The notes under the pieces are model-generated. The model searched no databases, was not told the origin of the DNA, and worked only from the letters and a program-made list of their open reading frames with translations. From Candidatus Woesebacteria bacterium GW2011_GWA1_39_21 (lineage in GTDB: Bacteria > Patescibacteriota > Microgenomatia > UBA8517), in the NCBI GenBank assembly GCA_000993685.1, contig LBWP01000018.1, positions 1 to 60,701 of the forward strand: 60,701 nucleotides of DNA, read 5' to 3'. This document shows positions 14,422-55,063 of the stretch, in pieces; position 1 is the stretch's first letter; each line of letters opens with the position of its first letter. The position numbers and the translations under genes were made by a program.

Positions 14422-14558
14422 ATGACATCCTCCCCGCCTTAAAAGGCGGGGTTTCCCCAAGGAGGATGACATATAAGCAAAGCTTAAGATTTTATCAAAA
14501 GCAAAGCTTAACTCTGTTTGCACATTTTCAGAGTTCAATCCTGCCCGCTAGCTTGCGC
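14422..14558 (-). mobile_element. IS200/IS605-type mini-element family B, right-end portion
   Basis: Reverse complement of 20029-20201 without the 35 bp duplication; hairpin CCCCGCC-TTTTAA-GGCGGGG followed by AGGATGTCAT. Confidence 0.75.
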
Positions 14559-14656
14559 AAACTACCACGGGCTAAAGCCCATGGTATTTTGTCTACAAGA
14601 TTGGATTCTTGCTTCATCCACGGACTTAAGTCCGTGGTTTTCGCAGATAAATTCAA
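14559..14656 (-). mobile_element. IS200/IS605-type mini-element (PATE-like) family A, copy 1
   Basis: Near-identical to 41718, 44344 and 54965; two hairpins (CCACGGGC/GCCCATGG and CCACGGAC/GTCCGTGG); no ORF. Confidence 0.8.
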
Positions 14657-14675
14657 ATAAAAAAATCAAACGGCA

Positions 14676-16184
14676 CTAGCTGATCGACACTTCGCCTACC
14701 TTTGCGGGAGTCCCGGTAGCAGGCAGTGTAAACCAAAATACCGTGCCCTTTTGAACATCGCTATCAAACCAGATCTTTCCGCCGGAAGACTCAACGATCG
14801 CTTTTGCCAAATATAGTCCAAGTCCGGTTCCGTCTGTTTCTATTTTTATAATATTACTGCTTCTGAAAAACTTCTCGAAAATTCTCTCTTTTTGATCTTC
14901 AGGTATCCCAAGTCCATTATCAGACACTTGAGAAACAATCTCATCTGCCCTTTTGGAAATCATCACCATAATTTCTCCATTGTTTTTTGTGTATTTTATT
15001 GAGTTAGTTAAGAGGTTCATATAAACATTTCTGATTAATCTTGGGTCGACGTTAATCAGAGGCAAATCTTCGTGGATTGATATCACAACACTGTGACCCT
15101 TCTCTTTTATTTTCGGTGTCAACTCAAAAACCACATCTTCAACCAGCTTCCTTAAATCGGTTGGTTTGGGGTCAATAATAATTCTTCCAGATTCGATCCG
15201 GGAAATATTCAAAAGCGAATTAACCAAATCAATCATCCTTTGGTTTGATTTGTAAATGTTGTTAATCAGATCTACTTGTTCTTTGGTTAACGATTGTTGA
15301 TCATCGAGTAAAAGTTCCGCAAACCACTTCGTCGCCGAAAGTGGGGTTCGAAGCTGATGTGACGCCAAAGAAATAAATTCCGTCTTCATTTTATCAACCT
15401 CTTTTTCCTTGGTAATGTCACGAAAAACATTAACACCTCCGACAACCAGGTCATGGGCAATAAGCGGTGTGGCCGTGATAGAAACCGGAATTAATCTCCC
15501 GCCCTTGCTTTTGTACAAATTAGAATTCTCATAAATTCTTCTTTTGGAAAAGAGTGCTAGTCTGATCGGCCTTTCGCTAATATCCATCTCCTGGTTGTTC
15601 TTTCCAATCATGGTGATTTTTTTCCATAAAAAATCACCCATCAATTCCTCTTCGCTAAAGCCCAAAATGTTCACTGCCTGCTGGTTAACGTAAATCACTT
15701 CACCTTTATCGTTGACACTAATCACTCCATCGCCAATACTTTGTAAAATCTCCTTTGAACGAATCCTATCTTCTTCAAGTTTTCTGATTTCTTCATTCTT
15801 TTCCGACTTTTTAATTTTTTCTTCGGTGTAATCTCGACCAATCAAAACAATTTTGTCCTGATAGCTAAAAAGCTTCAGATTGAGATATTTTTCGGCGCCA
15901 TTTTGCGCCTTCATAACCAGGTCAATTTTAAACGATTCACCCGCCTGCGGCTTTCCAATTAACGAGAGCTTTTCGAAATTTTGCTGGTTGAGAAAAATCT
16001 TAAAACTTTTTTTTGTAATCGAATTCACATCGCTACTTGCTAGATTACAAAACGAGGCGTTGACAAAAACAATGTTTAACTTGGGATCCAACACAACAAC
16101 AACGTCGGTGATATTATCAACGTAAAATTTTAAAAACTTTCTATTGAAGGCGGACTCATCTAAAAACAAAGAGTTGATACTCAT
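14676..16184 (-). CDS. Cytoplasmic PAS-PAS sensor histidine kinase
   Basis: Two PAS-like segments, H-box ASHQLRTPL, N-box NLLTNSIKY, DNGLGIP, GTGLGLYL; no TM helix. Start placed at MSINSLF. Confidence 0.92.
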   Translation of the reverse strand: MSINSLFLDESAFNRKFLKFYVDNITDVVVVLDPKLNIVFVNASFCNLASSDVNSITKKSFKIFLNQQNFEKLSLIGKPQAGESFKIDLVMKAQNGAEKYLNLKLFSYQDKIVLIGRDYTEEKIKKSEKNEEIRKLEEDRIRSKEILQSIGDGVISVNDKGEVIYVNQQAVNILGFSEEELMGDFLWKKITMIGKNNQEMDISERPIRLALFSKRRIYENSNLYKSKGGRLIPVSITATPLIAHDLVVGGVNVFRDITKEKEVDKMKTEFISLASHQLRTPLSATKWFAELLLDDQQSLTKEQVDLINNIYKSNQRMIDLVNSLLNISRIESGRIIIDPKPTDLRKLVEDVVFELTPKIKEKGHSVVISIHEDLPLINVDPRLIRNVYMNLLTNSIKYTKNNGEIMVMISKRADEIVSQVSDNGLGIPEDQKERIFEKFFRSSNIIKIETDGTGLGLYLAKAIVESSGGKIWFDSDVQKGTVFWFTLPATGTPAKVGEVSIS

Positions 16185-16251
16185 AGGGCAGCTGTCTTTA
16201 AGTGTACATAGACGTGCCAACCACGTCCAGATGTTTTTGTGAGTTTAGATA

Positions 16252-16632
16252 TTGGAAATAAATAACAATTATGTAAAATTATCCTTAAAGATGGTCAGAT
16301 ACAAAGAATACGTCAAAAAAATGCTCGATGAAAACGAGTCTTTGTTTGAACAATTTCGGACTGTCCACGATAAATACGCCCGGGACGACGTTAAGTATCA
16401 AGCACAATTAAACCAAATCGGCGAAAAAGTGCTTGAGGTTGTTAAGGAATACGAAAATCGAGTTTGCGCAAATACCGAACGTAGTTATTCGCAATATTCG
16501 GCAAATTTGGCTGAAAAATTCCAAAACGAAATCCGACGAGTTTTTCCGATGTTTGATTTTATCGGTGTCAAAATTAAAACGGTGCGTTCAGCCCCAAATG
16601 TTTCACCATTCAAACTGAAAAAACTTCTTTAA
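16252..16632 (+). CDS. Hypothetical protein
   Basis: 126 aa helical ORF filling the gap between the kinase and the MFS gene. Confidence 0.65.
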   Translation: MEINNNYVKLSLKMVRYKEYVKKMLDENESLFEQFRTVHDKYARDDVKYQAQLNQIGEKVLEVVKEYENRVCANTERSYSQYSANLAEKFQNEIRRVFPMFDFIGVKIKTVRSAPNVSPFKLKKLL

Positions 16633-16711
16633 CTTAGAAACTCAATTTTCAATTTCAAAAAATAGATGACCTCAGTTTAACTAAACATCATTCCTGTATA
16701 TAATTATTTCA

Positions 16712-17908
16712 ATGACCAAGGTGAAATTTAGAAGTTATTTTTCAGGGCTCACCAAAGACAGCTATTATCTTGCCTTAACTTCACTTTTTTCCGATATTTC
16801 CTACGAAATTTTGTATCCGGTACTTCCTATTTTTCTGACGCAGGTTTTAAAGGGCAGCGGAAGCATTGTCGGTTTTATTGACGGAGTTGCACAAGCTTCG
16901 CAAAACATTATCCAGGGATTTTCGGGAACAATTTCTGATAAATTAAATAAAAGAAAACCTGTGGCTATCATCGGTTATTCTTTAAGCGCTTTAAGTAAAC
17001 CATTCATCGGACTTTCAACAGTTTGGCAGCAGGTTTTGGGAGCCAGGTTTTTAGACCGCGTCGGCGCCGGAACACGTTCCGCTCCGCGCGACGCATTAAT
17101 TGCTGCATCTGCCGGCGAGGAAAACAGAGGCAAAGCTTTCGGGATTGAAGGCATCGGAGACAATTTAGGCGCTTTTTTGGGACCGATATTGGGAGTAATT
17201 CTTCTCTATTCATTTAACCTGCAAATCCGTCAGATTTTTTACGTTGCATTCGTCCCGGGACTTTTATCTGTTGTCATGATACTTTTGGTAAAAGAAAAAG
17301 CTGTAGTGGAAAAGAAGAAAACCGAACTGAAGTTGTCACCTAAAAACTTCAGCAATAATTTTTGGAAATATATCGCCGTAACCGCAATTTTCGGGCTGGG
17401 AAACTCCAGCAACGCATTTTTAATTTTGCAGACAAAAGACATCGGTGTAAGCCTTGAAACAACAATAATTATTTATGCCTTTTTCAATCTGGTTGCAGCT
17501 CTGGTGTCATACCCATCAGGCTATTTGTCAGACAAATTCGGACGTAAAAAAATCCTTCTTTTTTCATTCTTAATCTTTATTGCAAGCTACTTGGGTTTTT
17601 CTGTCAGCAAAAATGTTTTCCTGATCGGATTTTTATTTATCCTCTATGGCATTTACCAGGGAATATTTCGGTCTGTCGGAAAGGCATTTGCAACCGACTT
17701 TGTTTCGCCAGATCTAAGAGCAAGCGGTATTGGATGGTATTCAGCAACCATCGGTCTTACAGGACTTATCGCAAGTATTGTCGCTGGCGAGCTTTGGGAC
17801 CGCGTTGGGCATCCGTCAGTCTTTGTTTTCGGAACTGTATTTGCAATTCTTGGGACACTTGCGTTTGTCGCTTTGGTTCCTCAGAAAAGTAATCCACGGG
17901 TTAATTAA
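16712..17908 (+). CDS. MFS transporter
   Basis: About 12 TM helices; GTISDKLNKRK and GYLSDKFGRKK MFS loop motifs. Confidence 0.9.
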   Translation: MTKVKFRSYFSGLTKDSYYLALTSLFSDISYEILYPVLPIFLTQVLKGSGSIVGFIDGVAQASQNIIQGFSGTISDKLNKRKPVAIIGYSLSALSKPFIGLSTVWQQVLGARFLDRVGAGTRSAPRDALIAASAGEENRGKAFGIEGIGDNLGAFLGPILGVILLYSFNLQIRQIFYVAFVPGLLSVVMILLVKEKAVVEKKKTELKLSPKNFSNNFWKYIAVTAIFGLGNSSNAFLILQTKDIGVSLETTIIIYAFFNLVAALVSYPSGYLSDKFGRKKILLFSFLIFIASYLGFSVSKNVFLIGFLFILYGIYQGIFRSVGKAFATDFVSPDLRASGIGWYSATIGLTGLIASIVAGELWDRVGHPSVFVFGTVFAILGTLAFVALVPQKSNPRVN

Positions 17909-18067
17909 TATTTACTCTTAAATTCAGCTAAGCGAATTTATTTTATTGATATAAACAAGTTTTTCATTGGTTTGCTATACGTTTAGCTGAGACTTGGGTC
18001 TTTGCCAACTTCATGATAAAATAAATCACCGCTTGATATAACCCTGTGGTTTTTATGTCTAAAAAAT

Positions 18068-18173
18068 ATGATATCCTCCACAGACTTAAGTCCGTGGTTT
18101 CCCTTGAGGGAGGATGACATATCAAGTTCAATTTCTCCGTCGAGTCAGACTCGACGGTTTCCTTGAAATTGCT
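18068..18173 (-). mobile_element. IS200/IS605-type mini-element variant C
   Basis: Hairpin CCGTCGAGTC/GACTCGACGG (18137-18157) plus a family-B-like right end ATGTCATCCTCC...CCACGGAC-TTAA-GTCTGTGG-AGGATATCAT. Confidence 0.6.
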
Positions 18174-18218
18174 ATAGAAATTTAAAAAATTTATACATCG
18201 ATTTCGTCAGAAATTGCT

Positions 18219-19949
18219 ATGGGAAAAATATTAAAAACATTTTATAAATTCTTTTTCAAAAAGAGAGCTTGGGCTATCTTTTTTATAGGTTTAATATTTG
18301 TTTCTCCCGCCATCGAAAGTTTTTCTCCGTATTTTTACAAGTTATTTGTTGATGCTATCCCCTCATATGACACCAATCTCATCATGAGAATTCTTATTAC
18401 CTACCTTGCAATCAGGATCATTGCTACGATCATTGATATTGTAAAGATGCAGGTCGGAGACATATTATCTGTTGATGCGGGAGCGGAAACTATGTCTTCA
18501 ATATTCTCCCATGTTCATAAACTTGATTTTGCATTCCATAGCTCAAAATCATCCGGATCTTTAATCAGTGCTTTTAAAAGGGGTGACGGCGCGTTTTGGA
18601 ATTTTTATTTTGCAATACACTTCCGAATTGTTGATGTATTAGTCCGATTCATTGTACTCCTCTACTTTTTTAAGAATCTGAACACTCAGATATTCTTAAT
18701 GATTCTTGTCACCTTCGCTTTGACTTCAACCATAACCGCAGTGTTTGTGAAATACAACATAAGGGCCCGAAAAAAAGTCAACGAATACGAAGACGATATT
18801 TCAGGCGTTATTGTTGATAACATGATCAACTTCGAAACCGTAAAACTTTTTTCAAAGGAAAAATGGGAACAAAACAGGCTGGAAAACATTCAATCGTTCT
18901 GGAGAAAAGCTGTCTGGAAATACATCTACACCTGGAGAGGTTTTGATCTTGCGATGGGAATCGTAATGAACGCAAGTATCTTCTTAATCTTAGTTTACTC
19001 GCTCAAAATGACGATGAATAAAACATTTACAATCGGTGATTTCGTTCTTGTTACAAGTTTTTTACAAAGTTTCTATTCACACTTATTTGATCTTGTTTTC
19101 GGACTCCGAGACATCGCAAAAAGCTATGCTGACATTCATAAGTATTTCAGCATTTTGGATAATAAAGTTCAGATTACAGACCCGGAAAATCCAAAAGTTA
19201 TAAAAAGTGTTAAGGGAGAAATTGAATTTAAAAACGTTAATTTTGCCTATGACAAACATTCAAACAAAGCCCTGAAAAATATTAAATTGAAAATCCGTCA
19301 GGGACAATCAATTGCCTTGGTTGGACGGTCCGGAGCGGGTAAAACATCGTTTATAAAGTTACTGCTTCGTTTTTTTGATCCTGATTCAGGAAATATCATC
19401 ATCGACGGACTAAATCTTAAGAAGATGACAAAAACGTATCTCCGAAGTTTATTCGGAGTTGTACCGCAGGAGCCGATCCTTTTTAACAGCACAATTTTAT
19501 ACAACATAAAATACGGAAAACCAAAGGCTACAAAAGCAGAAATAACCGCAGCTTCAAAAATGGCTAACATTTACGATTTTATTGAAAGTCTTCCGGAAAA
19601 ATACGAAACACAAGTCGGAGAACGCGGTATAAAACTTTCGGGTGGACAAAAACAAAGATTGGCGATCGCCAGAATGATTCTCTCCGACCCCAAAATAATT
19701 ATCTTTGACGAAGCAACATCACAGCTTGATTCTGAATCGGAAAAGTTGATTCAGGAAGCTTTTTGGAAAGCATCAAACGGAAAAACTGTAATTATCATTG
19801 CGCACCGCCTCTCAACAATTCAGAGAGCCGACAAAATAGTCGTTTTAGAAAGAGGTAGAATCGTTGAGGAAGGGTCGCACCAGGAGCTTTTACTTCGAGA
19901 CAAAAGTCTCTACTCTCATTTCTGGGAGCTGCAGGTAAAACGTGAGTAA
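18219..19949 (+). CDS. ABC exporter, fused TMD-NBD (MdlB/ATM1-like)
   Basis: 6 TM N-terminus; GRSGAGKT, LSGGQKQR, IIFDEATS, IAHRLST. Confidence 0.93.
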   Translation: MGKILKTFYKFFFKKRAWAIFFIGLIFVSPAIESFSPYFYKLFVDAIPSYDTNLIMRILITYLAIRIIATIIDIVKMQVGDILSVDAGAETMSSIFSHVHKLDFAFHSSKSSGSLISAFKRGDGAFWNFYFAIHFRIVDVLVRFIVLLYFFKNLNTQIFLMILVTFALTSTITAVFVKYNIRARKKVNEYEDDISGVIVDNMINFETVKLFSKEKWEQNRLENIQSFWRKAVWKYIYTWRGFDLAMGIVMNASIFLILVYSLKMTMNKTFTIGDFVLVTSFLQSFYSHLFDLVFGLRDIAKSYADIHKYFSILDNKVQITDPENPKVIKSVKGEIEFKNVNFAYDKHSNKALKNIKLKIRQGQSIALVGRSGAGKTSFIKLLLRFFDPDSGNIIIDGLNLKKMTKTYLRSLFGVVPQEPILFNSTILYNIKYGKPKATKAEITAASKMANIYDFIESLPEKYETQVGERGIKLSGGQKQRLAIARMILSDPKIIIFDEATSQLDSESEKLIQEAFWKASNGKTVIIIAHRLSTIQRADKIVVLERGRIVEEGSHQELLLRDKSLYSHFWELQVKRE

Positions 19950-19972
19950 AAAAATTGTCAGTTAATGGTTAT

Positions 19973-20201
19973 AACAGCGTTCAAGAAAACCCCACCCTTC
20001 AGGGTGGGGATGACCCGCCTGCTTAGCTTGCGCAAGCTAGCGGGCAGGATTGAACTCTGAAAATGTGCAAACAGAGTTAAGCTTTGCTTTTGATAAAATC
20101 TTAAGCTTTGCTTAAGCTTTGCTTTTGATAAAATCTTAAGCTTTGCTTATATGTCATCCTTCTTGGGGATACCCCGCCTTTAAAGGCGGGGAGGATGTCA
20201 T
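19973..20201 (+). mobile_element. IS200/IS605-type mini-element family B, full copy with an internal 35 bp tandem duplication
   Basis: TTAT target, left hairpin CCCCACCC-TTCA-GGGTGGGG, right hairpin CCCCGCC-TTTAAA-GGCGGGG-AGGATGTCAT; 20077-20111 repeated at 20112-20146. Confidence 0.78.
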
Positions 20202-20743
20202 TTAAAATTGACGCTGAAGTCCAAATTTGGGGGAAGCAGCGTTTTATCGTCGAGCGTTGAGTTGTTAACTTCGTTTTGTAAAACACTGATCCCCTCATCT
20301 ATCTTTTTGAAATTTGGATCTTCCGCATATATTGACGGTTTATATTTTTGATACGGAGAATACGACGGGGTTGGCGGTGCAACTAAAACATTAATCGTTC
20401 TAACCGGTGCCTTTCGGATAAATTTAACGTAAAGCGCTGCTCCGATAACAACAACCATAACCAAAACGCCGACAAGTCCGGCAACTTTTTTTGGTGTCAG
20501 GTTCGTGGTCAGATCGCGAATGTCAAATAACTTCTCTGTTTGTTGGCCTTCAAAGGCAGGCGGCTTTGTTCCGGAAACTTTTTCGCCAGCTGGATTGTCA
20601 TTTTTCTTCGGCCCGTTTACAACAAACGAAACTCCTTCATTGACCAAACCTTTAACTGCAACAGAAAGTTTCGGATCAGACTCCTTCGGTATTTCTGGAG
20701 GAACGGGAACGTTATTTTTAACTTCTTGTTTAACTTCAACCAT
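20198..20743 (-). CDS. Hypothetical single-pass membrane protein
   Basis: 181 aa with one TM helix (VAGLVGVLVMVVVIGAALYV) and a Pro-rich tail. Confidence 0.65.
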   Translation of the reverse strand: MVEVKQEVKNNVPVPPEIPKESDPKLSVAVKGLVNEGVSFVVNGPKKNDNPAGEKVSGTKPPAFEGQQTEKLFDIRDLTTNLTPKKVAGLVGVLVMVVVIGAALYVKFIRKAPVRTINVLVAPPTPSYSPYQKYKPSIYAEDPNFKKIDEGISVLQNEVNNSTLDDKTLLPPNLDFSVNFK

Positions 20744-20748
20744 ACATC

Positions 20749-21582
20749 TTAGTTTTCGGAAACTTTTATCTCATTGATAATTTCTTTTGTTTTTATAATC
20801 CTGTCAATAAAAACTGCCATTACCTTGTTCAAAATTGAAACTGACCCGTTGTAAACGTTTAAGCTGTACTTTCCTTGCGCCTTAGCAATTTGCATATCAC
20901 CCTGGCCGAGTAGTTTATTCAATTCTTCCGCTTTCAACCCAATTTCCGAAAACCAGCGGTCAATCGTACTGATTTTTTGATTGCTAAGCTTGTAGGCCTC
21001 TCTGTTTTCATTTTTTATTTTCTCTGTCAGAACGTTAAGATCGTTGTATAGCCCACCATATCTTAATTCATAAGTATCAAACTTTCCCCGCGCGATGTAA
21101 TACAAATTCTCATACAAACCTTTTTGAAAAGCATTGACCCGATCCTCAACCTCTTTGGATTTTGCCGATAATTCGGTAAGGACGTCATCCTCGTAATATT
21201 GGTTTCTGTGGTCAGTTAGCCAATTAATCTCATCATTTAATCTTGATGTATAGTCGCTCTTGTTCTGGTCTGACATTGTGACCAAGCTGTCGTCCATTTT
21301 TGAAATAAGGGAGCGGTAGTAATAAATCAGAACATTATCTCGCGCCACAAGCATTTGTTGCAGGTCCTTCTGCAAATTTTCTTTTGAGGTTAAGGTTCCG
21401 TACTGATCATACTGTTTTTTAGAAAGTACATATTTGTCGTGGAGTGATAGGTATTCGTCATACTTCTGACGGTAATCGTTATAAACTTTTGCGAACTGCT
21501 CGCGCGAGGCATTTTGTGCAGAAACCTGTTGCGCAAAAACAAAATACAAGACAAAGGCAACAAACAAAGTAATTTTTTTCAT
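20749..21582 (-). CDS. Hypothetical secreted coiled-coil protein
   Basis: Signal-peptide-like N-terminus followed by all-helical sequence. Confidence 0.65.
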   Translation of the reverse strand: MKKITLFVAFVLYFVFAQQVSAQNASREQFAKVYNDYRQKYDEYLSLHDKYVLSKKQYDQYGTLTSKENLQKDLQQMLVARDNVLIYYYRSLISKMDDSLVTMSDQNKSDYTSRLNDEINWLTDHRNQYYEDDVLTELSAKSKEVEDRVNAFQKGLYENLYYIARGKFDTYELRYGGLYNDLNVLTEKIKNENREAYKLSNQKISTIDRWFSEIGLKAEELNKLLGQGDMQIAKAQGKYSLNVYNGSVSILNKVMAVFIDRIIKTKEIINEIKVSEN

Positions 21583-21585
21583 ACT

Positions 21586-23595
21586 CTAATACGCAATTCT
21601 TATTTTACCTCCAGTATAGCTCACAACGAAAGAGTTTAATGATTTAATCTGGACTTTATAAAGGTTTCTTCCCTTCCATAGTGGTATCACACCCGTTGTG
21701 ACAATCTGGTATTCAGAATTATTAGTCGTTGCCATCTCGCTTCCATTGACGCCAATTTTATTCGTATCATCCCAAAGACGGACAAACGCTTGTCCGTTCC
21801 CGTGGTCAACTTTCAGAGAAGCTTCCCAAGACACAGTTGCATCTTGGCCGTAGTCGTGAACCAGGTCAATATACGTTGCCGTGTCATCAATCGTATACCA
21901 GTCGGTCGAAGTTGAATCATATGTTGAACCCATCGGAATATAAGTTACCCCAGATTTAACCGAGGTTTGCGTTTTCGCAACTTCACTCTTTTGGATTATT
22001 GGTGTAATACTTGAAATTACTTGTTTAACTTCTTTTTGAATTTCCGCTTTACAAGCGTCTCCACAAGAATCCGGGTTGTTGTTTTGACTCGAGGTTTTTT
22101 CAGACATTACCGGTTGTTTTGGGGAGTCGGCTAATTGTGAAAGTTTGGTTTCAACTCTACCAAGTCTTTCAAAAAAATAAAAAAAGGCCGAAGCGAAAAC
22201 AACAACAGCCACAAGTGAAGTTGAAATAATTGCAAGTTTTTTATTCATGGCAGGAAACATGTCATCAGCTTCTTGGTACTTTCCTTCTTTTCGAAGTTGC
22301 TCCCGCTTTTGTGCCAACTCCAGTATCTGTTGCGGAATCTCAATTTTTTCTGTCGTTACCTCGGCCAGTTTTAGTCCCAAAACCGTGTCAAAATCCAAGA
22401 CCAATTCGTATTTATCGTTTGCCGGGATATTGCTTTTAACCACACTCCATAAAGTCGCCAAAGCTTCAGGGGTGTTCAAATCGTTGCTAAGCGCATCTGA
22501 AAAACTTTTTGTATACTTATCGACTTTTTCCAGCTTACCTTCAGAAAGCGATGTTCTTTCGCGATTTGTCCGCAAATTCGAAATAATGCTTCTTAAATTG
22601 TTAAGTGCGGCCGTCGCAGAATCCAAAGCCTCGTAAGAAAAATTCAAACCTTTTCGGTAGTGTGAGTTCAAAATTAAATAGCGAAAAGCCATTGGATCGT
22701 AACCCTTTTCGACCAGCTCCGAAACGGTCACGATATTGCCAAGACTTTTACTTAATTTCTCACCTTTTTTACCCAACAACCAGGCATTATGAAGCCAAAA
22801 GTTGGCCGTGCTTTTCCCAAACGCAGCATACCCCTGTGCAATTTCGTTAGTATGATGAATTCCAATATGTTCAATTCCACCTGTATGAATATCAAAATTA
22901 CTGCCAAGAAATTTTGTCGACATCGCGGTACATTCAATATGCCAACCCGGATAACCAGCTCCCCAAGGGCTGTCCCATTTCATAATATGCTCGGGATGAC
23001 CTGTCACCCATAAAAAGAAATCCCAGGGGTTTTTCTTTTCGGGATCATCGGCAACGTCCTCACGCTTAACCTGCTTTTTCAAGTCCAATTTAGCAAACTT
23101 GGCATAATCTTTAAATTTTGAAGTATCGAAGACCAAACCCGTCTTTGTTTTATAGGCGAAACCTTTTTCTTCAATTTTTTTGATCAGATCAATCTGCGCA
23201 TCAATGTTGTCGGTTGCTCGGCACAAAACATCGGGTCGTTTAATATTTAATTTATCAATGCTATCCAAAAACTGCGCGGTATACTTGTCAGCAATATGCC
23301 AAACCGAAATCCCCTCGACCTTCGCCCGTTTTTCCATCCGATCCTCGCCAGTATCGGCTGCCCCAAGATTGTCACCGGTCATGTGACCGACATCGGTAAT
23401 ATTCATTACCCATTTCACTTGATACCCAAGGTGGCGCAAACCGCGCACGAGTAGATCCCATTGAACAAAGGCGTACATATTACCAATATGTTGATTCCAA
23501 TAAACCGTCGGCCCACAAGAGTAAACTCCAGCACTCGCCGGCTTGATTGGCTCAAATTCTTCAAGTTTTCGATTCAGAGTGTTATAAAGCTTCAT
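21586..23595 (-). CDS. cysS: Cysteinyl-tRNA synthetase (22261-23595, 3'-truncated) fused in frame to a membrane-anchored hypothetical protein (21586-22260)
   Basis: YSCGPTVY, HIGN, PGWHIEC, DIHTGGIEH, KLSKSLGN. After KYQEADD the sequence switches to MFPAMNKKLAIIS plus a TM helix. Confidence 0.9.
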   Translation of the reverse strand: MKLYNTLNRKLEEFEPIKPASAGVYSCGPTVYWNQHIGNMYAFVQWDLLVRGLRHLGYQVKWVMNITDVGHMTGDNLGAADTGEDRMEKRAKVEGISVWHIADKYTAQFLDSIDKLNIKRPDVLCRATDNIDAQIDLIKKIEEKGFAYKTKTGLVFDTSKFKDYAKFAKLDLKKQVKREDVADDPEKKNPWDFFLWVTGHPEHIMKWDSPWGAGYPGWHIECTAMSTKFLGSNFDIHTGGIEHIGIHHTNEIAQGYAAFGKSTANFWLHNAWLLGKKGEKLSKSLGNIVTVSELVEKGYDPMAFRYLILNSHYRKGLNFSYEALDSATAALNNLRSIISNLRTNRERTSLSEGKLEKVDKYTKSFSDALSNDLNTPEALATLWSVVKSNIPANDKYELVLDFDTVLGLKLAEVTTEKIEIPQQILELAQKREQLRKEGKYQEADDMFPAMNKKLAIISTSLVAVVVFASAFFYFFERLGRVETKLSQLADSPKQPVMSEKTSSQNNNPDSCGDACKAEIQKEVKQVISSITPIIQKSEVAKTQTSVKSGVTYIPMGSTYDSTSTDWYTIDDTATYIDLVHDYGQDATVSWEASLKVDHGNGQAFVRLWDDTNKIGVNGSEMATTNNSEYQIVTTGVIPLWKGRNLYKVQIKSLNSFVVSYTGGKIRIAY

Positions 23596-24317: not shown

Positions 24318-24328
24318 CTTCAGTAACG

Positions 24329-24350
24329 AAAAAACCCAGCGGAAGCTGGG
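24329..24350 (-). terminator. Intrinsic terminator-like hairpin
   Basis: Minus strand CCCAGC-TTCC-GCTGGG followed by TTTTTT. Confidence 0.5.
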
Positions 24351-24488
24351 TGAATTTCGTCAAGTTAAACCAAAACCTAATGGTCTAACTCGACGGGCAA
24401 AAACAACAAGAAAAATTTATTGTCATAACTTTGACGTCATTCTAACGAATAATTTTTACAATTTCAACTATTTCCTTCTAGCGGTAAC

Positions 24489-24944
24489 CTACTGCTTACT
24501 TTTTCTGATCTCTGGTCCCGTTTCGCCCTTGGCTGTTCCCGGCCTTCCGCGCATCTGACCCATCTTTGGTTTTGAGGTTAAAGGAATAACAGGTTTTTCT
24601 TCCAAACTCTCACCAGGACCAACAATTTTAAACTGACGCTCAACCTCTTCATTCCAAACCCTTCTTTTTTCCTGATCTTCAGTCTGTACTTTTTTCAGTT
24701 CCTCGTTCAGCTGCTCTTGTGTTTGAATAAACTTTCGTTGTCTATCAATTTTGTTCTGTTTTTCAATTTCCTCACTTTCTGTTTTTTGCTGCATCGCCTC
24801 GGCGATCGGATCCGGTTGGCTGGAGTCCACATTTGCGCTAATTTGTGCTGCGGCACTTTCACCAAACTTTTCCACTTCCTCAAATGCCGACCCAACGACT
24901 CGGTTTACAAGATGATCTTTTTTTTGTTTGTGTTTGATATCCAT
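24489..24944 (-). CDS. Hypothetical protein, Q/E/K-rich
   Basis: 151 aa ORF co-oriented downstream of recR. Confidence 0.6.
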   Translation of the reverse strand: MDIKHKQKKDHLVNRVVGSAFEEVEKFGESAAAQISANVDSSQPDPIAEAMQQKTESEEIEKQNKIDRQRKFIQTQEQLNEELKKVQTEDQEKRRVWNEEVERQFKIVGPGESLEEKPVIPLTSKPKMGQMRGRPGTAKGETGPEIRKSKQ

Positions 24945-25004
24945 TTTGAACTTCGCTTGCCCCGTTAGAAGTCTTTAAACTTTCTAATGGGGGTTTTGAT
25001 TTTT

Positions 25005-32520: not shown

Positions 32521-32592
32521 ATAAACTACCGAGGGCTAAGACCCCTCCCATTCATCTGTGGACTTTTAGTCCACGGTTTTCAGGAAGATTGA
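32521..32592 (-). mobile_element. Internally deleted family A mini-element, copy 5
   Basis: ATAAACTACCGAGGGCTAAGACCC end and TTCATCTGTGGAC-TTTTA-GTCCACGGTTTTC end, flanked by ATAA as in the full copies. Confidence 0.62.
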
Positions 32593-32603
32593 ATAAATTT
32601 GAA

Positions 32604-34141: not shown

Positions 34142-34511
34142 ATCTGAAGTAACTCCTCTTTCTTTTTCTCCCCAGTCATTTTTCCCTGTCTTCAGTCGTC
34201 ATCGGAGGAAAAGAGATGCGGATAATTTGTCCGTCAACCGAAGGATTCATTCCGACATTTGCGGCCAAGATTCCCTGTCTGATTTCTCCGATTATCGACT
34301 TGTCCCAAGGGTCGATGACTAAAGTTTGATGATCCGGCGTAGAAATACTAGCCAGTTCTTTAATCTTTAATTTTTGTTGACCACCATAAACAACAACACT
34401 CAAATCATCAACCAAAGCTGGTGTTGCTCTTCCAGTTCGCAACGATCCAAGATCAGAAGTCATCATGGAAATAACTTGGTTCATCTTGGAGCGTATCGAG
34501 GCTTCATCCAT
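34138..34511 (-). pseudogene. frr: Ribosome recycling factor with internal deletion and frameshift
   Basis: LRTGRATPAL...IDPWDK...NPSVDGQIIRISFPPMTTEDRE then stop; the RRF C-terminus GEKKKEELLQI follows in another frame (34138-34179). Confidence 0.85.
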
Positions 34512-41676: not shown

Positions 41677-41717
41677 CTATCACAATAATCGCTTGAAAAA
41701 AATAATCGCTTGAAAAA

Positions 41718-41816
41718 ATAAACTACCACGGGCTAAAGCCCATGGTATTTTGTCGACGAGATTGGATTCTTGCTTCATCCACGGACTAAAGTCCGTGGTT
41801 TTCGCAGAGAAATTCA
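41718..41816 (-). mobile_element. Family A mini-element, copy 2
   Basis: 99 bp, two hairpins, flanked by ATAA; an adjacent 17 bp tandem duplication lies at 41684-41717. Confidence 0.82.
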
Positions 41817-41851
41817 ATAAATTCAAGAAGAAAATTAAATAGATTTCCGGA

Positions 41852-44332: not shown

Positions 44333-44343
44333 AACAGGTTAAG

Positions 44344-44441
44344 ATAAATTGCCACGAGCTAAAGCCCATGGTATTTTGTCGACGAGATTGGATTCTTGCT
44401 TCATCCACTGACTAAATCCGTGGTTTTCGCAAAGAAATTCA
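44344..44441 (-). mobile_element. Family A mini-element, copy 3, slightly degenerate
   Basis: 98 bp match to the other copies with a few substitutions in the hairpins. Confidence 0.78.
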
Positions 44442-44511
44442 ATAAAAATTGCAATTCAGAGTTTAAAATTTTTAATTTTAAATTGTATTTTTGCACTTTG
44501 AATTTTGCCTT

Positions 44512-45594: not shown

Positions 45595-45656
45595 TTTAGT
45601 AAATTAATTACATTCAAGAAAAGAAATCTGTTCTAATTAATATTTATACCCTAAAA

Positions 45657-47285: not shown

Positions 47286-47428
47286 TTACCCCTATCAGCC
47301 AAGAATATGTCGAACTGCGCTTATCGTCAAGTTATCCATAAACGTTGCAGGTCAACACAACCCTGTCTGGTAAAAATAGTTACGGCTAAGTTACAAGTTC
47401 AAGTCAAAGTAGGTTGAACGCCAAATTT

Positions 47429-48523: not shown

Positions 48524-48754
48524 CTTTCGAGGTCGTAAATTAATTAGAAAGTATACTAACTAACACACCTTTTTAGTATAGCCAATCAAAATTATTCACA
48601 GTCATCCTGCTGACCTCGCAACTTGGTTTAAAAAAACAATGATTTCAAACTATCTCTGTCAACCACCCTCAACTTATCTGTAGTATATTAGATATACAAT
48701 TCCCAACGCTATGTAATCAAAAAAGTTCGTTAAACCTAAACAAAGCTTAAAAAA

Positions 48755-50917: not shown

Positions 50918-51043
50918 CCTCAAATAAGGTAAAATAGGAAAACAAGGTAAAATGACAAGATGGTAAAAAGGTAAAAGTATCATAAATAACTTATTTTTGT
51001 TTCTTCTTTTACACTTTTACTCTTTCAGCCTTTCACATAACGT

Positions 51044-51568
51044 ATGATTCAAAAAATCGTTTCCGTAAAGGATCCGACACTTCGGATACCTTCAAAAAAT
51101 ATTACTAGGTTTGATAAAAAAACATATAAACTGATCAACGATCTGAAAGACACATTGGTTATCCAAAACGATCCGGTTGGGGTGGGTCTTGCTGCGCCAC
51201 AAATCGGCAAGAACCTGCGTGTTTTTGCAATTAAACCGGACGCAACTGTAAAGATTATCGCCAATCCCGAAATCATCTCTGTGGCAAAAGAGGCAAAAGA
51301 TTTAATCGACCACGACACCAAACTGATGGAGGGTTGTTTATCGCTTCCAAATTTATACGGTCCGCTCAAACGTCCAAGCACAGTTAAAATCAACTATTTA
51401 GACGACAAAGGAGAGAAGGTCACTAAGCTCTTTAGTGGATTTGAGGCACAAATTATTCTTCACGAGATCGACCATCTAAACGGGATTCTTTTTATAGACC
51501 GACTTCTCGAACAAAAAAAACCGTTGTATGAACTTGTCAACGGCGAATGGGAAAAAGTTGAAATATGA
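51044..51568 (+). CDS. def: Peptide deformylase
   Basis: GVGLAAPQIG, EGCLS, HEIDHLNG. Confidence 0.97.
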   Translation: MIQKIVSVKDPTLRIPSKNITRFDKKTYKLINDLKDTLVIQNDPVGVGLAAPQIGKNLRVFAIKPDATVKIIANPEIISVAKEAKDLIDHDTKLMEGCLSLPNLYGPLKRPSTVKINYLDDKGEKVTKLFSGFEAQIILHEIDHLNGILFIDRLLEQKKPLYELVNGEWEKVEI

Positions 51569-52539
51569 AAATTGTTTTTTTTGGAACACCCAATTACGTT
51601 GTACCAGTTTTAGAGGCGCTTCACAAAGCTTTGAAAAATCGTGGTGAGTCACCAATTGCAGCCGTTGTAACGCAGGAACCAAAACTATCAGGTAGAGAAC
51701 AGCAAAAAACTTTCTCGCCGGTTGACGCCTGGGCATACCAACACAAAAAGCCGATTTACTTCAATCCAATGGACATCGTAACAGAAAATATTGACGCTGA
51801 AATTGCAGTACTAGCATCTTTCGGAAAGATCATTCCCGATGAGGTAATTAAATATTTTAAGTATGGAATCATTAACATTCACCCGTCATTACTACCACAG
51901 TGGCGTGGTGCTTCACCGATCCAAGCAACAATTGTCAGTGGCCAAAAAGAAACCGGTGTCACTTTTATGAAATTAGATCCGCTTTTGGACCACGGAGAAA
52001 TAATTTCCCAATTTAAAGACGAAGTATTTGATACCGACAACAATGAAAGCTTGCGCACAAGATTGTTTGAAAGAGCCTCCAATGTTTTAGTCGATCTAAT
52101 TCCCGCTTATACCAGCGGAAAAATAAAAACCAAACCCCAAGAGCACGACAAGGCAACTTTTACAAAACAGCTCAAGAAAGAGGATGGTTTCATTCCACCA
52201 AAATATTTGGAGGCAGAGTTAAGTGGAAAAACCCGACGCGATAAATGGGAAATTTCCTGGATGAAAGTTGACAATAAACCTTATTACTCACAACCTACTG
52301 TCTACAATGTCTTCAGCTTTATCCGTGCAATGGAACCATGGCCCGGGGCTTGGACCTCCGTAAAGGTTGGCAACGACACGTCACAAGCAAAAAGATTAAA
52401 AATTTTAAAAGCGCATCTTTCGAACCTACAAACCACAACTAACGGCCCACAACTCATGCTTGACGAAGTCCAACTTGAGGGCAAGTCACCAGTTTCCTGG
52501 AGGCAATTCACGGAAGGTTACCCAAACGCTAAATTTTAA
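51565..52539 (+). CDS. fmt: Methionyl-tRNA formyltransferase
   Basis: IVFFGTP, INIHPSLLPQWRGASPI, ETGVT, LDHG; def-fmt synteny. Confidence 0.95.
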   Translation: MKIVFFGTPNYVVPVLEALHKALKNRGESPIAAVVTQEPKLSGREQQKTFSPVDAWAYQHKKPIYFNPMDIVTENIDAEIAVLASFGKIIPDEVIKYFKYGIINIHPSLLPQWRGASPIQATIVSGQKETGVTFMKLDPLLDHGEIISQFKDEVFDTDNNESLRTRLFERASNVLVDLIPAYTSGKIKTKPQEHDKATFTKQLKKEDGFIPPKYLEAELSGKTRRDKWEISWMKVDNKPYYSQPTVYNVFSFIRAMEPWPGAWTSVKVGNDTSQAKRLKILKAHLSNLQTTTNGPQLMLDEVQLEGKSPVSWRQFTEGYPNAKF

Positions 52540-52608
52540 TAACAACTTCGGCTTCTTACTTTTCGAATGCAAGAGTCGGACGCTCTTGATCAACTTCGCA
52601 CAATGATC

Positions 52609-53181
52609 TTACTTAACTTTCCAAAAAACTTTTGTCAGCCTTTCCTTGTCGTTCTTTGTAAGTTTGACACTTGAATCTTCTGTCAACTTATTTGGAACCA
52701 AAAGCAGATGAAGGGGGTTATTTTTAAGAGGGCACCACCTAACTTGCCATTCAGCATATTCAATTCCACTTATATGGGCTAAATATAGATGGTCATTACT
52801 CCTTGCCATTCTTCTGCCTGTAACTGCATTAACTACCATATTCATATCGATGTCCTTTTCTTCAATTCCCAAACTTCGGGTGAAATCGATGTGAGCCGAT
52901 TTGCCGAGGGGAAATCCGTTTATACAATCAATTCTGTCTGTTTTTGTAAAATCAAAATGGTTCCATTCCAAACGGTTTACGGATAACACCCCAACAGCAA
53001 AACCGACCTTGTCTGCCATTTGTTGAGTTATTCTCATACCTTCCTCTGGTAAGTAAGGTTTTACCCTTTCATACATTTCTCTATATTGCCACCAATACAG
53101 CGCATTACCCTCACCATCGAGTCGATAATTCGTCCGATTTACAAGGCCACCCCGTCTTTCGTTCATATTATTATAGGTCAT
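52609..53181 (-). CDS. Hypothetical protein
   Basis: 190 aa ORF, AT-rich codon use, convergent with fmt. Confidence 0.6.
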   Translation of the reverse strand: MTYNNMNERRGGLVNRTNYRLDGEGNALYWWQYREMYERVKPYLPEEGMRITQQMADKVGFAVGVLSVNRLEWNHFDFTKTDRIDCINGFPLGKSAHIDFTRSLGIEEKDIDMNMVVNAVTGRRMARSNDHLYLAHISGIEYAEWQVRWCPLKNNPLHLLLVPNKLTEDSSVKLTKNDKERLTKVFWKVK

Positions 53182-53219
53182 ATTATAATGCAGATGCTCC
53201 CGAATTTGAAGTGCACTTT

Positions 53220-53471
53220 TTAAATGAAGGAAATATTCTTATAATCCCCGATACTTCCAAAGTTTTTAATTCTTTTAATACACTTTGCACAGAGGCGCAT
53301 TTGTTTACTTTCGCCATTGATAACAACTGTTTTCTTTTGTAAATTGATTCTGAATAATCTCGGTGTAACTGGAGCACGTTTCTTCCAGCGTTTTCCGGCA
53401 ACACCGCGCCCGTGAGTTCGCGAACTTCCCATGACATTTTTCTTGTGACAAATCTGACAAACGTATGACAT
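53220..53471 (-). CDS. rpmB: 50S ribosomal protein L28
   Basis: CQICHKK...R.FRINLQ...LCAKCIK. Confidence 0.92.
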   Translation of the reverse strand: MSYVCQICHKKNVMGSSRTHGRGVAGKRWKKRAPVTPRLFRINLQKKTVVINGESKQMRLCAKCIKRIKNFGSIGDYKNISFI

Positions 53472-53605
53472 AAAACAAACTCAAAACTTAAAGGTCAAAA
53501 TTCAAAATTAAATGATTTCTAATTAAAAGCTTTGAATTTTACACTTTGAGCTTTGAGATTTTAATATTATACTAATAAAGTAATTCTTTAGCAAAGGAAG
53601 AATTT

Positions 53606-54250
53606 ATGCAAATCATCTCTGCAATTTTAGCGTTTGTCATCGCCATCACTATTCACGAAGCTTCCCATGCTTGGATGTCCGATCGATTAGGCGACCCAAC
53701 TGCAAGATTGATGGGAAGGCTATCCTTCAATCCCTTGCGGCATCTTGACCTATACGGGACAGTTTTAATCCCGCTTTTTTTAATCTTTATCGGATCCCCT
53801 TTTGTCTTTGGCTGGGCGAAACCGGTAATGTTTGACCCTTACAATTTAAGAAATCCAAAAAAGGACGGTGCCTTAATTGCCCTCTCGGGGCCTGCCTCAA
53901 ACATGCTTTTGGCAATTGTTTTAGCTGTTGTTTTTAATCTTATAAATAATCCGTTTTTTCCATCAACATTTCTGAAAATGCTTTTAACGGACATAATTAC
54001 TATTAACGTTGCTTTAGCTATTTTCAACCTAATACCAATTCATCCGCTAGACGGTGGAAAAATCTTTATCGGAGTCTTGCCTGACAAAGACGCCGCCGAG
54101 GCGGAGAATTTCATGAATCGATTCGGTCTAATTCTTCTTCTTATTATTATCTTTCCTCTTTTTGGAAGGACATCGGCGCTAAACGCTTTTATTACCCCGA
54201 TCGTCAGTTTGATACTGAAGATTCTCATACCGGGTTCCGGAATGGTTTAA
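53606..54250 (+). CDS. Site-2 protease family (M50) zinc peptidase
   Basis: HEASH, GRLSFNPLRHLD, GWAKPV, AGP-like SGPASN, NLIPIHPLDG. Confidence 0.92.
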   Translation: MQIISAILAFVIAITIHEASHAWMSDRLGDPTARLMGRLSFNPLRHLDLYGTVLIPLFLIFIGSPFVFGWAKPVMFDPYNLRNPKKDGALIALSGPASNMLLAIVLAVVFNLINNPFFPSTFLKMLLTDIITINVALAIFNLIPIHPLDGGKIFIGVLPDKDAAEAENFMNRFGLILLLIIIFPLFGRTSALNAFITPIVSLILKILIPGSGMV

Positions 54251-54316
54251 CATCAAAAAAGCAGTAGCTTCAAATAATTTTCAACTGGCAGATGTTGCAT
54301 CGCCGTGTTACTATTA

Positions 54317-54518
54317 GATTGACCCTGTTTGGGGAATATTTAAGGGAAAGCTTTTTCCTCATCAAAAAAAGCTATTCTGGGTCCTCGATTCACTCGGGGT
54401 CGGCAGGAACGTTTCTGCCGGGGACGAATTGTCCATTGCCTGTGGGCTTTGGATTGAGTCTACCCACCTCGTTCATACGGGGAAAAACTTCACCTTATCC
54501 CCCCATACAGGGTCATTC
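54317..54518 (+). ncRNA. Putative 6S-like rod-shaped ncRNA (~200 nt)
   Basis: End-to-end pairing GATTGACCCTGTTTGGGG / CCCCATACAGGGTCATTC, TTTTTCCTC / GGGGAAAAA, CTCGATTCA / TGGATTGAG, with a central bubble; G-U pairs favour the + strand. Confidence 0.5.
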
Positions 54519-54719
54519 ATTTCAGAGTAAAAGGGCGAGCGAGTAAAAGAGTAAAAGTAAAACACAAGACAGAACTATTTATACACCCTATTCATCCACA
54601 ATTATCTTGCTTCAAGGATCACACAATTTTTGATATAATCTCACTATCGGATTTGTTTTTATAGATTCCCGCCTGGGTTTACTCCGTTTTTTTATGGGGG
54701 GGGAATGACAACCAAAAAT

Positions 54720-54790
54720 GCCCTTCTAGCTCAATGGCAGAGCGACGGTTTTGTAAACCGCTGATTGGAGTTCGATTCTCCAGTAGGGCT
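54720..54790 (+). tRNA. tRNA-Thr(TGT)
   Basis: Cloverleaf; anticodon arm CGGT-TTTGTAA-ACCG; T-arm TGGAG-TTCGATT-CTCCA; one acceptor-stem mismatch. Confidence 0.9.
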
Positions 54791-54794
54791 CAAC

Positions 54795-54879
54795 GCTGAG
54801 GTGGCGGAGCGGCCAATCGCACCAGACTGTAAATCTGGCGCCCGGACGGGCTACCTAGGTTCGAATCCTAGCCTCAGCA
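54795..54879 (+). tRNA. tRNA-Tyr(GTA)
   Basis: GCTGAGG/CCTCAGC acceptor, CCAGA-CTGTAAA-TCTGG, long variable arm, CTAGG-TTCGAAT-CCTAG. Confidence 0.95.
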
Positions 54880-54944
54880 CTCCTTGCAGTCGTGTTGAGT
54901 CTAGTCTTGATAGTGCACAAGTAATGAATTGCATTCGTGCACGG

Positions 54945-54963
54945 CGAATCCTAGCCTCAGCAC
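54945..54963 (+). repeat. 19 bp direct repeat of the tRNA-Tyr 3' end (att-like)
   Basis: CGAATCCTAGCCTCAGCAC at 54862-54880 and again at 54945-54963. Confidence 0.85.
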
Positions 54964-54964
54964 A

Positions 54965-55063
54965 ATAAACTACCACGGGCTAAAGCCCATGGTATTTTGT
55001 CGACAAGATTGGATTCTTGCTTCATCCACGGACTAAAGTCCGTGGATTTCGCACATGAATTCA
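54965..55063 (-). mobile_element. Family A mini-element, copy 4
   Basis: 99 bp, two hairpins, flanked by ATAA. Confidence 0.82.

Follow-up and report, generated by a model that had tools for sequence, protein, structure and literature searches.

Probable non-autonomous IS200/IS605 mini-elements in a Woesebacteria contig, with ends that follow the IS608 guide/cleavage pairing rule

Introduction

The closest described counterparts of the repeats reported here are IS608 and IS606, insertion sequences (IS) of the IS200/IS605 family. The left cleavage site of IS608, TTAC, is situated 19 nt 5′ of the left-end hairpin and the right one, TCAA, 10 nt 3′ of the right-end hairpin, both being recognised by the four nucleotides that precede the foot of the hairpin (the guide), AAAG at the left end and GAAT at the right (PMC3201880). 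In the crystal structures of IS608, guide bases 1 and 2 pair with cleavage bases 2 and 1, respectively, and two bases located 3′ of the hairpin, A+42 and T+43, form a third strand on those two pairs (PMC5934647). Derivatives without a transposase gene are also on record, because a mini-IS606 consisting of the two ends persists in a Helicobacter pylori strain that contains only an IS606 remnant and no transposase gene, the target of IS606 being TTAT (PMC2993954). Additionally, Gomes-Filho et al. already linked, by means of a hairpin, the RNA family HgcC, the palindrome-associated transposable elements (PATEs) of haloarchaea and the sotRNAs from the 3′ end of tnpB (PMC4615843). Here we analyse a stretch of 60,701 nt from Candidatus Woesebacteria bacterium GW2011_GWA1_39_21 (contig LBWP01000018.1, positions 1 to 60,701; hereafter, the window), which contains eight short repeats that are very probably non-autonomous deletion derivatives of IS200/IS605 elements (mini-IS, or PATE-like elements), keeping only the ends that the transposase TnpA needs.

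This identification derives from sequence comparisons, namely from the anatomy of the repeats, the homology of their ends to those of known IS, their target specificity, the covariation of guides, cleavage sites and third bases, tandem insertion and strand bias. Elements of this kind are already known; those described here follow the published cleavage-site rule unusually cleanly. The IS608 recognition rule, including the base triplets, was derived from a single H. pylori element, and the mini-elements constitute a natural test of it.

Eight repeats with two unlike, hairpin-bearing ends

A first-pass annotation of the window, made from its sequence alone, had described eight IS200/IS605-type elements with subterminal hairpins and no open reading frame (ORF); all eight were reproduced at the same places, and both the hairpins, which are GC-rich, and the absence of ORFs were borne out. 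They are listed below, together with one neighbouring hairpin of uncertain affiliation.

A1, 14559-14656, minus strand: family A; left end at 14656, last 2 nt of the right end missing in the window; target TTAT at 14657-14660.
B1, 14422-14558, minus strand: right 137 nt of a family B element, ending in ...GGAGGATGTCAT at 14422; first 57 nt deleted in the window.
C, 18068-18173, minus strand: variant of 106 nt; left guide GAAA, hairpin CCGTCGAGT/ACTCGACGG; flank CTAT at 18174-18177.
B2, 19973-20201, plus strand: complete family B element of 229 nt, with a 35-nt internal tandem duplication; target TTAT at 19969-19972.
A2, 32521-32592, minus strand: degenerate family A element of 72 nt, interior and right-end guide deleted; target TTAT at 32593-32596.
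A3, 41718-41816, minus strand: intact family A element of 99 nt; target TTAT at 41817-41820.
A4, 44344-44441, minus strand: family A; left-end hairpin damaged in the window; target TTAT at 44442-44445.
A5, 54965-55063, minus strand: family A; left-end guide mutated to AAAT; target TTAT at 55064-55067.
Possible solo hairpin ACCACGCA/TGCGTGGT, 14386-14405, minus strand: 17 nt past the right end of B1; family membership uncertain.

Read in the orientation of the element (top strand), the left ends have the general layout TTAT, 12-15 nt, AAAA, hairpin, ATGA. Using ^ for the element boundary, family A (99 nt) reads TTAT^TGAATTTCTCTGCG AAAA CCACGGAC-TTTA-GTCCGTGG ATGAAG ... AATA CCATGGGC-TTTA-GCCCGTGG TAGT TTAT^, and family B reads TTAT^AACAGCGTTCAAG AAAA CCCCACCC-TTCA-GGGTGGGG ATGACC ... 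GATA/GAAA CCCCGCC-loop-GGCGGGG AGGATG TCAT^; the 57 nt that B1 lacks include the left-end hairpin CCCCACCC/GGGTGGGG. The right end of B2 consists of GATA, the hairpin, AGGATG and TCAT, and that of C, in the window, of GAAA, the hairpin, AGGATA and TCAT; C is thus B-like at this end, although its left-end hairpin differs from that of B and is followed by AG, not by AT. The left-end hairpin of A2 contains one mismatch. The terminal tetranucleotide is TTAT in the A copies, with cleavage predicted 8 nt from the hairpin, and TCAT in B and C, 10 nt from the hairpin. There is no terminal inverted repeat between the ends of any single element.

The window contains ten perfect GC-rich hairpins with a stem of at least 7 bp in its 60.7 kb, seven of them inside the elements and an eighth situated 17 nt from B1, and the top strands of A3 and C form far more stable folds than shuffled sequence does (z = -6.0 and -4.95, respectively). 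A second extra hairpin of this class, at 24334-24351, is preceded by AAAAA and has an outer stem ACGAAA...TTTCGT, resembling a left end; this and the hairpin at 14386-14405 could represent solo ends or terminators.

Many unrelated Logan contigs cease to match the window exactly at 14422, 19969, 41717/41820 and 18175, the first of these boundaries being supported by 5-12 contigs per run. These breaks therefore fix the limits of the elements independently and show that the TTAT flank is common to the copies. In groundwater runs, contig depth climbs on the elements from ca. 15 to several hundred or more, that is, roughly 25 to >100 times the single-copy depth, indicating a high copy number. The window copies differ pairwise by 5-13 %, those from family A being 87-95 % identical.

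Target site and pairing of guides with cleavage sites

The tetranucleotide TTAT is found immediately 5′ of seven of the eight left ends from the window, that of B1 being visible only in other assemblies, against a background of 0.0074 per position (P ~ 1e-14), and it also precedes all 20 distinct insertion sites found in other contigs of the candidate phyla radiation (CPR). The observation in the first-pass annotation of TTAT before all five A copies and the complete B copy is thus confirmed. Its spacing of 17-19 nt between TTAT and the hairpin also stands, except for A2, with 16 nt, as does its AAAA before the left-end hairpin of the A copies, except for A5, with AAAT. For the right end of family A it had given the guide as AAAA, a reading that requires two further T-A pairs to be included in the stem; with the hairpin foot at CCATGG, the guide is AATA. 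Either of the two would fit the pairing rule. In family B, TTAT flanks the left end, TCAT forms the right terminus and unrelated sequence lies beyond it, so that nothing is duplicated upon insertion.

The left end of C (GAAA with CTAT) had been considered a poor fit to the rule, and this is so for the window copy but not for other copies of family C. Six contigs from three public sequencing runs (designated with X-numbers: X1, X7 and X16) continue past 18175 with GA, giving TCAT^AGCAATTTCAAG GAAA. Since the guide GAAA predicts TCAT, the flank of these other C copies is the expected partner.

We examined the pairing across 27 elements, testing guide bases 1, 2 and 4 against cleavage bases 2, 1 and 4, respectively. 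The ends follow the IS608 rule, as had been proposed, with 142 of 147 guide:cleavage pairs being Watson-Crick. The third of these pairings is our own reading of the two published IS608 pairs (G with C and T with A). Variation is compensatory and defines three classes, with AAAA, AACA or AATA occurring with TTAT; GAAA or GATA with TCAT; and AGAA, AGCA or AGGA with CTAT. To these can be joined the combinations of IS608 itself, AAAG with TTAC and GAAT with TCAA. The two bases that directly follow the hairpin covary as well: G appears almost only opposite a G:C pair, with AG in TCAT-type ends and GT or GA in CTAT-type ends, and A/T opposite nearly all the A:T pairs. This covariation in sequence is what would be expected from the base triplets of the IS608 crystal structure. 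There are thus three cleavage classes (TTAT, TCAT and CTAT), each with its predicted guide and third base.

The mini-elements share with IS608 and IS606 the location of their subterminal hairpins on one strand, the pairing of the four guide nucleotides before each hairpin with the cleavage tetranucleotide, a left cleavage site outside the element, at 16-19 nt from the hairpin, and a right one inside it, at 8-10 nt. They also have AT directly after the left hairpin and, as does IS606, TTAT as target. Conversely, they differ in the hairpin sequences, in the hosts, in the right terminus (TCAT or TTAT in the CPR elements, in place of TCAA), in a much higher copy number for the genome size, and in that no full-length partner was seen.

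A head-to-tail pair of families A and B

The first-pass annotation called copy 1 of family A composite. It is not a hybrid element, because other assemblies show at this locus a complete A followed by a complete B. Four assemblies (L047, L049, L050 and L052; L-numbers designate comparison contigs, loci or assemblies) from the same population, defined by at least 99.5 % identity to the window over long stretches, read ...GGTAGTTTAT^AACAGTGTTCAAGAAAACCCCACCC..., with an intact A right end abutting a complete B. Compared to them, the window lacks 59 nt at 14556-14564 (cf. L047:2288-2340), between the near-identical hexamers TAGTTT and TAGCTT; of the missing segment, 2 nt are the end of A1 and 57 nt the beginning of B1, and a contig from X1 also contains the undeleted left end of B. 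By sequence, then, the hybrid in the window is taken as a real deletion or an assembly collapse, and not as a third type of element.

As A directly abuts B, the terminal TTAT of A is at the same time the target TTAT of B, and this tandem arrangement is a prediction of the transposition model outlined below.

In X1, one contig at single-copy depth joins 14656 to 14422 as ...GGAGGATGTCAT^TTGAATTTATC..., with the B right end abutting the A left end without a TTAT, so that TCAT is followed directly by TTGAATTT. It may represent a B-then-A tandem elsewhere in the genome or a junction of an A+B unit, and it did not reappear at the stricter threshold of 92 % likeness.

Related mini-elements and autonomous IS with similar ends

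Searches with a degenerate pattern of the family A hairpins identified 11 loci in CPR and other metagenome-assembled genomes (MAGs), including Woesebacteria, WWE3 and other Patescibacteria, and the left-end pattern identified 30 metagenome loci. Together, these correspond to 20 distinct insertion sites of mini-elements of 100-300 nt. Family A occurs in Woesebacteria GW2011_GWA1_38_8 with 84-88 % identity to the copies in the window, which is about as alike as these are among themselves. A 23-mer from family A had no match in a genome collection of species representatives, family A had none in plasmids, and the left-end pattern had none in viral contigs.

A 34-nt query with the left end, however, matched Vibrio plasmids directly upstream of an annotated IS200/IS605 tnpA gene, with the sequence TTAT^TCTGTGGATACAG AAAA CCACGGG-TTTA-CCCGTGG ATGAATG. 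The product of this gene is a Y1 TnpA of 142 aa with very widespread homologues, named by one source "ISSod23 family", and the left-end motif is likewise upstream of tnpA in an Alteromonas plasmid. In Geovibrio there are at least seven IS copies at different places of the genome, and one more on a metagenome contig, with flanks ending in TTAT and the structure TTAT^GCGGTCGAAGACAG AACA CCACGC-TTTTAA-GCGTGG ATGAATG ... tnpA ... AGAA CCCCGGG-TTTA-CCCGGGG GTAT CTAT^; its geometry (left end, 14 + 4 nt; right end, 4 + 4 nt) is the same as in family A. There are two tandem pairs among these copies, the second copy of a pair being flanked by the terminal CTAT of the first. Another multi-copy IS, belonging to the aquifer BioProject that also yielded one contig of the window population, has a CTAT flank at four of four sites, with guides AGCA/AGGA. 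In all, the left-end motif was found upstream of a tnpA gene that was annotated or confirmed with Pfam (PF01797) in loci L057, L058, L060-L067 and L192-L200. The likeness between mini-elements and tnpA-bearing IS is at the level of the motif, spanning ca. 30 nt plus the geometry, with no long alignment.

The left ends of these ISSod23-like elements of the IS200 group, which contain only tnpA, can thus be overlaid on those of the mini-elements (TTAT^, 13-14 nt, AAAA/AACA, CCACGG...CCGTGG, ATGAATG); the layout of their right end (hairpin + 4 + 4 nt) is that of family A; both show head-to-tail tandems; and a member of the group occurs in the same aquifer project. They differ in that they carry tnpA, in that their right ends are CTAT with AGAA/AGGA guides, and in that none was found on a Woesebacteria contig. 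From this shared left-end layout, an ISSod23-like IS200 TnpA of 142 aa is the likely family of the transposase that would act on the mini-elements.

Five of the six non-tandem Geovibrio copies (L060-L065) directly follow a GC-rich hairpin and a T-run ending in ...TTTTTAT. Since these terminator-like tails end in TTTTTAT, the TTAT target appears often to be supplied by an intrinsic terminator.

The B/C right end, HgcC and the TnpB omega RNA

At Rfam gathering thresholds, only tRNAs were identified over the window. With permissive thresholds, B1 (33.6 bits), B2 (27.2 bits) and six B-type mini-elements from elsewhere aligned to HgcC (RF00062) over the whole model (positions 1-130; 27.2-38.3 bits, E 1e-7 to 1e-2), together with a weak match to sot0042, while family A had no match in Rfam. 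On the HgcC model, the first hairpin plus GAUGA...UGAAC corresponds to the left end of the short mini-elements, and the last hairpin plus GAGGAGGUCA to their right end.

The motif CCCCG-N10-CGGGG-AGGANGTCA is present in >120 viral contigs, with GAAT/TCAA as the dominant guide/cleavage pair, as in IS608. In 72 of 131 motif matches an ORF of at least 150 aa, mostly of 300-450 aa, ends near the hairpin, and the single ORF inspected (L072) contained TnpB-like motifs, as read by eye. Because TnpB-type right ends share this hairpin, the B/C right ends can be considered a GAAA/TCAT variant of them; judging from the sequence, this type of right end would also form the 3′ end of the TnpB omega RNA. The CPR type of right end (GAWA...TCAT) had two matches in viral contigs, neither of them beside tnpA or tnpB. 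Metatranscriptome runs X21-X24, from the same studies as the DNA runs, had no match anywhere on window positions 14300-20300, genes included, and are uninformative with respect to transcription of the elements.

The B-type mini-elements thus align with HgcC from end to end, the PATEs are fused IS200/IS605 left and right ends (PMC4615843), and the right-end hairpin is the 3′ stem of the TnpB omega RNA. Against this likeness, the known members of HgcC are archaeal, the scores of the mini-elements are below 50 bits, and family A does not match. The comparison ties an orphan Rfam family to mini-IS and extends the architecture to CPR bacteria.

Orientation, mobility and a proposed mechanism

The G+C content of the window is ca. 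39 %, the GC skew of its plus strand is negative nearly throughout, and its minus strand, which carries most of the genes, is the G-rich, leading-strand sequence. As had been noted, seven of the eight elements are on the minus strand. The orientation bias attributed to this family was also upheld, with the top strand being on the G-rich strand in 22 of 26 cases (p = 2.7e-4), a bias not separable from that of gene direction. In other contigs, the GC skew of the top-strand flank was positive at 15 of 18 sites.

We propose that a TnpA dimer supplied in trans would bind the hairpins on the single-stranded top strand, exposed as template for the lagging strand, and would cut on the 3′ side of both the flanking TTAT and the terminal TTAT or TCAT, releasing a single-stranded circle that would be pasted 3′ of another TTAT. 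The circle junctions expected are GGTAGTTTAT^TGAATTT for family A and GGATGTCAT^AACAG for family B. As family A ends in TTAT, it would recreate the target at its own right end, which accounts for the head-to-tail arrangement of A and B at 14.4-14.66 kb. The elements would have spread in this Woesebacteria lineage after its split from relatives that are ca. 70 % identical in TopA.

In two such relatives there is synteny over 22 kb (queA...dprA-topA...folA-thyA...frr-rseP) without any A, B or C copy, and with short, element-free spacers at dprA-topA, downstream of mazG, and between rseP and a tRNA synthetase gene. The site of A2 is empty in relative L068, and a relative syntenic with window positions 11.7-15 kb (L015) contains a B-type mini-element at another junction, but none at the place of A1/B1. 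Since the elements are absent from the same junctions in these relatives, the insertions are lineage-specific. The empty TTAT sites anticipated for related genomes were therefore found in part, as element-free junctions in species with ca. 70 % TopA identity, but not as an exact, nucleotide-level empty site.

Several observations weigh against the identification as mini-IS served by a transposase in trans. The window yielded neither a Y1 transposase nor a TnpB, whether by a Pfam scan of 30 of its 71 ORFs of at least 100 aa or by tblastn over its whole length. Neither was a TnpA or TnpB found in 442 kb of comparison contigs from the window population and related CPR bacteria, which overlap heavily and represent only part of the genome. 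The tblastn queries were approximate IS608/IS200 TnpA sequences and, later, real TnpA sequences, run against the window and the loci up to L056. All the 30 metagenome and 11 genome loci with the left-end motif are mini-elements, with no full-length element being found among them. Five of the window copies have defects that are expected to block cleavage, namely the guide of A5, the hairpin of A4, the deletion of A2, the flank of C and the truncation of B1. The matches to HgcC are all under the Rfam gathering score of 50 bits. The GC skew, used as a stand-in for the direction of replication, tracks gene direction. Finally, the claim that the family was recently active is unsupported, because the same-population assemblies, which cover seven sites (all but that of A5), carry the element wherever they cover a site, with no differences in presence/absence. 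Logan contigs from eight DNA runs contained no exact empty site, no excision joint and no unambiguous circle junction, although these are assembled contigs that hide rare variants and therefore constitute weak evidence.

The conclusion that these are PATE-like IS200/IS605 elements is nevertheless supported by the likeness to the ends of tnpA-bearing IS, the compensatory variation and the IS608 geometry. A puzzle then arises, since there would be tens of copies in a likely small genome without a visible transposase; CPR genomes are typically of ca. 1 Mb.

Alternative explanations

It is conceivable, with a chance somewhat short of even, that the repeats arose as IS200/IS605 mini-elements but are now fossils, immobile relics in a genome without TnpA that were kept because they are small and intergenic. 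This would account for the lack of TnpA and TnpB in the window and in the related contigs, for the uniformity of assemblies with at least 99.5 % identity, for the divergence of 5-13 % among copies, and for the five of eight window copies that are defective in hairpin, guide, flank or end; it also has a precedent in H. pylori Shi470, with mini-IS605 and mini-IS606 but no functional full-length element (PMC2993954). However, the genome is incompletely represented by the contigs examined, A3 and B2 are still intact, their hairpins being perfect and their guides matching, and family A is 84-88 % identical, at non-orthologous sites, in a Woesebacteria with ca. 70 % TopA identity, which points to constraint or transfer and not to free decay. 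We regard as unlikely that the repeats, especially those of type B, are functional RNA genes similar to HgcC or omega RNAs, possibly guides that read their flanks for a TnpB elsewhere. Such a role would agree with the alignment of the B type over the whole HgcC model, with a right end of the kind known from the 3′ terminus of tnpB, at which the omega RNA ends, with the strong sequence conservation across genera, and with the expression in Halobacterium of PATE-derived RNA and sotRNAs, whose over-expression improved growth (PMC4615843). Nevertheless, searches for TnpB in the window and related contigs were negative, nothing in Rfam matches family A, the HgcC scores do not reach the threshold, and the conservation of guides, cleavage sites and flanks is accounted for by transposition at the DNA level rather than by an RNA function. 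As a rather long shot, CPR genomes might hold around a hundred HgcC-like mini-elements without a resident transposase, either moved by a transient TnpA from a phage, a plasmid or a host bacterium, or co-opted as bacterial HgcC/omega-type RNAs, for instance as flank-reading guides for TnpB elsewhere.

The remaining readings were rejected on anatomy. Repetitive extragenic palindromic (REP) sequences, REPINs and bacterial interspersed mosaic elements (BIMEs), spread by a domesticated REP-associated tyrosine transposase (RAYT, or TnpA-REP) and not derived from IS, are similarly high-copy, intergenic hairpins, which a Y1 HUH enzyme recognises by means of a tetranucleotide on their 5′ side (PMC3333891, PMC8266576). 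This origin is highly improbable here, because the mini-elements are asymmetric, with two unlike ends in direct orientation and distinct cleavage sites, and not single palindromes or inverted doublets; the conserved GTAG 5′ of REP hairpins is absent, with AAAA/GAAA in its place; the left end can be aligned to IS200 left ends upstream of tnpA; the TTAT target is fixed; and, whereas REPs flank RAYT genes, no Y1 gene was found nearby in the window and related contigs. It is scarcely credible that they are ordinary miniature inverted-repeat transposable elements (MITEs), with terminal inverted repeats, target duplication and a DDE transposase, or intrinsic terminators multiplied by recombination. 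The TTAT at both ends of family A could be read as a 4-bp duplication, and the left-end hairpins, when read on the bottom strand, precede a TTTT and obtain terminator-like scores. Terminal inverted repeats are lacking, though, family B has TTAT at its left flank and TCAT at its right terminus, and the T-run is a consequence of the AAAA guide and points away from most genes. The identification as IS200/IS605 mini-elements is thus preferred to both.

Host, assembly effects and minor observations

The ORFs from the window scanned with Pfam correspond to housekeeping and otherwise ordinary genes, including topA, dprA, thyA-folA, tsf, type II secretion and pilin genes, and two-component regulators. 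A TopA identical to that of the window occurs on groundwater metagenome contigs, and the nearest named relatives are Candidatus Woesebacteria, with ca. 70 % identity in TopA. The host is accordingly an aquifer bacterium of the CPR (Patescibacteria). Contigs L015 and L046 are labelled as a gammaproteobacterial MAG; as L015 is syntenic with window positions 11.7-15 kb (gspE, three response regulator genes and one for a histidine kinase) at 67-70 % identity, it is a Woesebacteria-like contig placed in the wrong bin, and the labels of L011 (Melioribacter) and L012 (Omnitrophota) may reflect similar misbinning.

The elements break metagenome assemblies of Woesebacteria, with contigs that end or rearrange at the copies and, in the window, with a deletion spanning two of them, and their annotation would aid genome curation. 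L005:1-843 joins the A4/topA side to a wholly different left flank, the break being within the left end of A, and contains 70 nt upstream a solo B-type left end (TTAT^AACAGCGTTCAAGAAAACCCCACCC...), as could result from recombination between copies or from chimeric assembly. Compared to L001:9884-9992 and L002:49-157, A4 differs at six positions, the hairpin being intact in both contigs and the flanks near-identical, which suggests gene conversion between copies or mixing of repeats in the assembly.

Two differences between assemblies were considered as candidate empty sites and rejected, because neither is an element insertion. At 22258/22259, the window lacks 233 nt with respect to L047:10006-10238 and L048:6575-6807, and a different segment of 200 nt with respect to L051:4183-4382; the 233-nt segment is not of type A, B or C and varies between assemblies. 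In other assemblies, the segment missing here separates a 220-aa ORF from cysS, while the window has a fused ORF of 669 aa (21586-23595). The window also lacks 181 nt within frr, at 34177/34178, compared to L002:10304-10484, so that the ribosome recycling factor has 111 aa in the window and 184 aa in L002, possibly owing to an error in the assembly or to a deletion in the strain.

The AT-rich core of family B (window positions 20062-20148) contains a short tandem repeat, AAGCTTTGCTTTTGATAAAATCTT, with one, two or three units across assemblies (L047, L050 and L052 at the B1 locus), and the 35-nt duplication of B2 is a duplication of this repeat. A 17-nt tandem duplication (AATAATCGCTTGAAAAA twice) at 41684-41717 adjoins the right end of A3, and is a single copy in contigs from X1, X3 and X7. 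The core of the outer stem from the C right end, GGAGGATGACATAT (window positions 18104-18135), is several-fold more abundant than the rest of C and adjoins other hairpins in other contigs (CAGCGGGC..., CACGGGC..., GCGAATT...), so hairpins appear to be exchanged between conserved flanks. Lastly, a 19-nt copy of the 3′ end of tRNA-Tyr (54862-54880 and 54945-54963) is situated 64 nt downstream of the gene, abutting the right end of A5, and a related Woesebacteria contig, L070, contains three copies of 17-19 nt spaced by ca. 190 nt (102-118, 294-310 and 486-504); these copies look like attachment-site scars of an integrative element.

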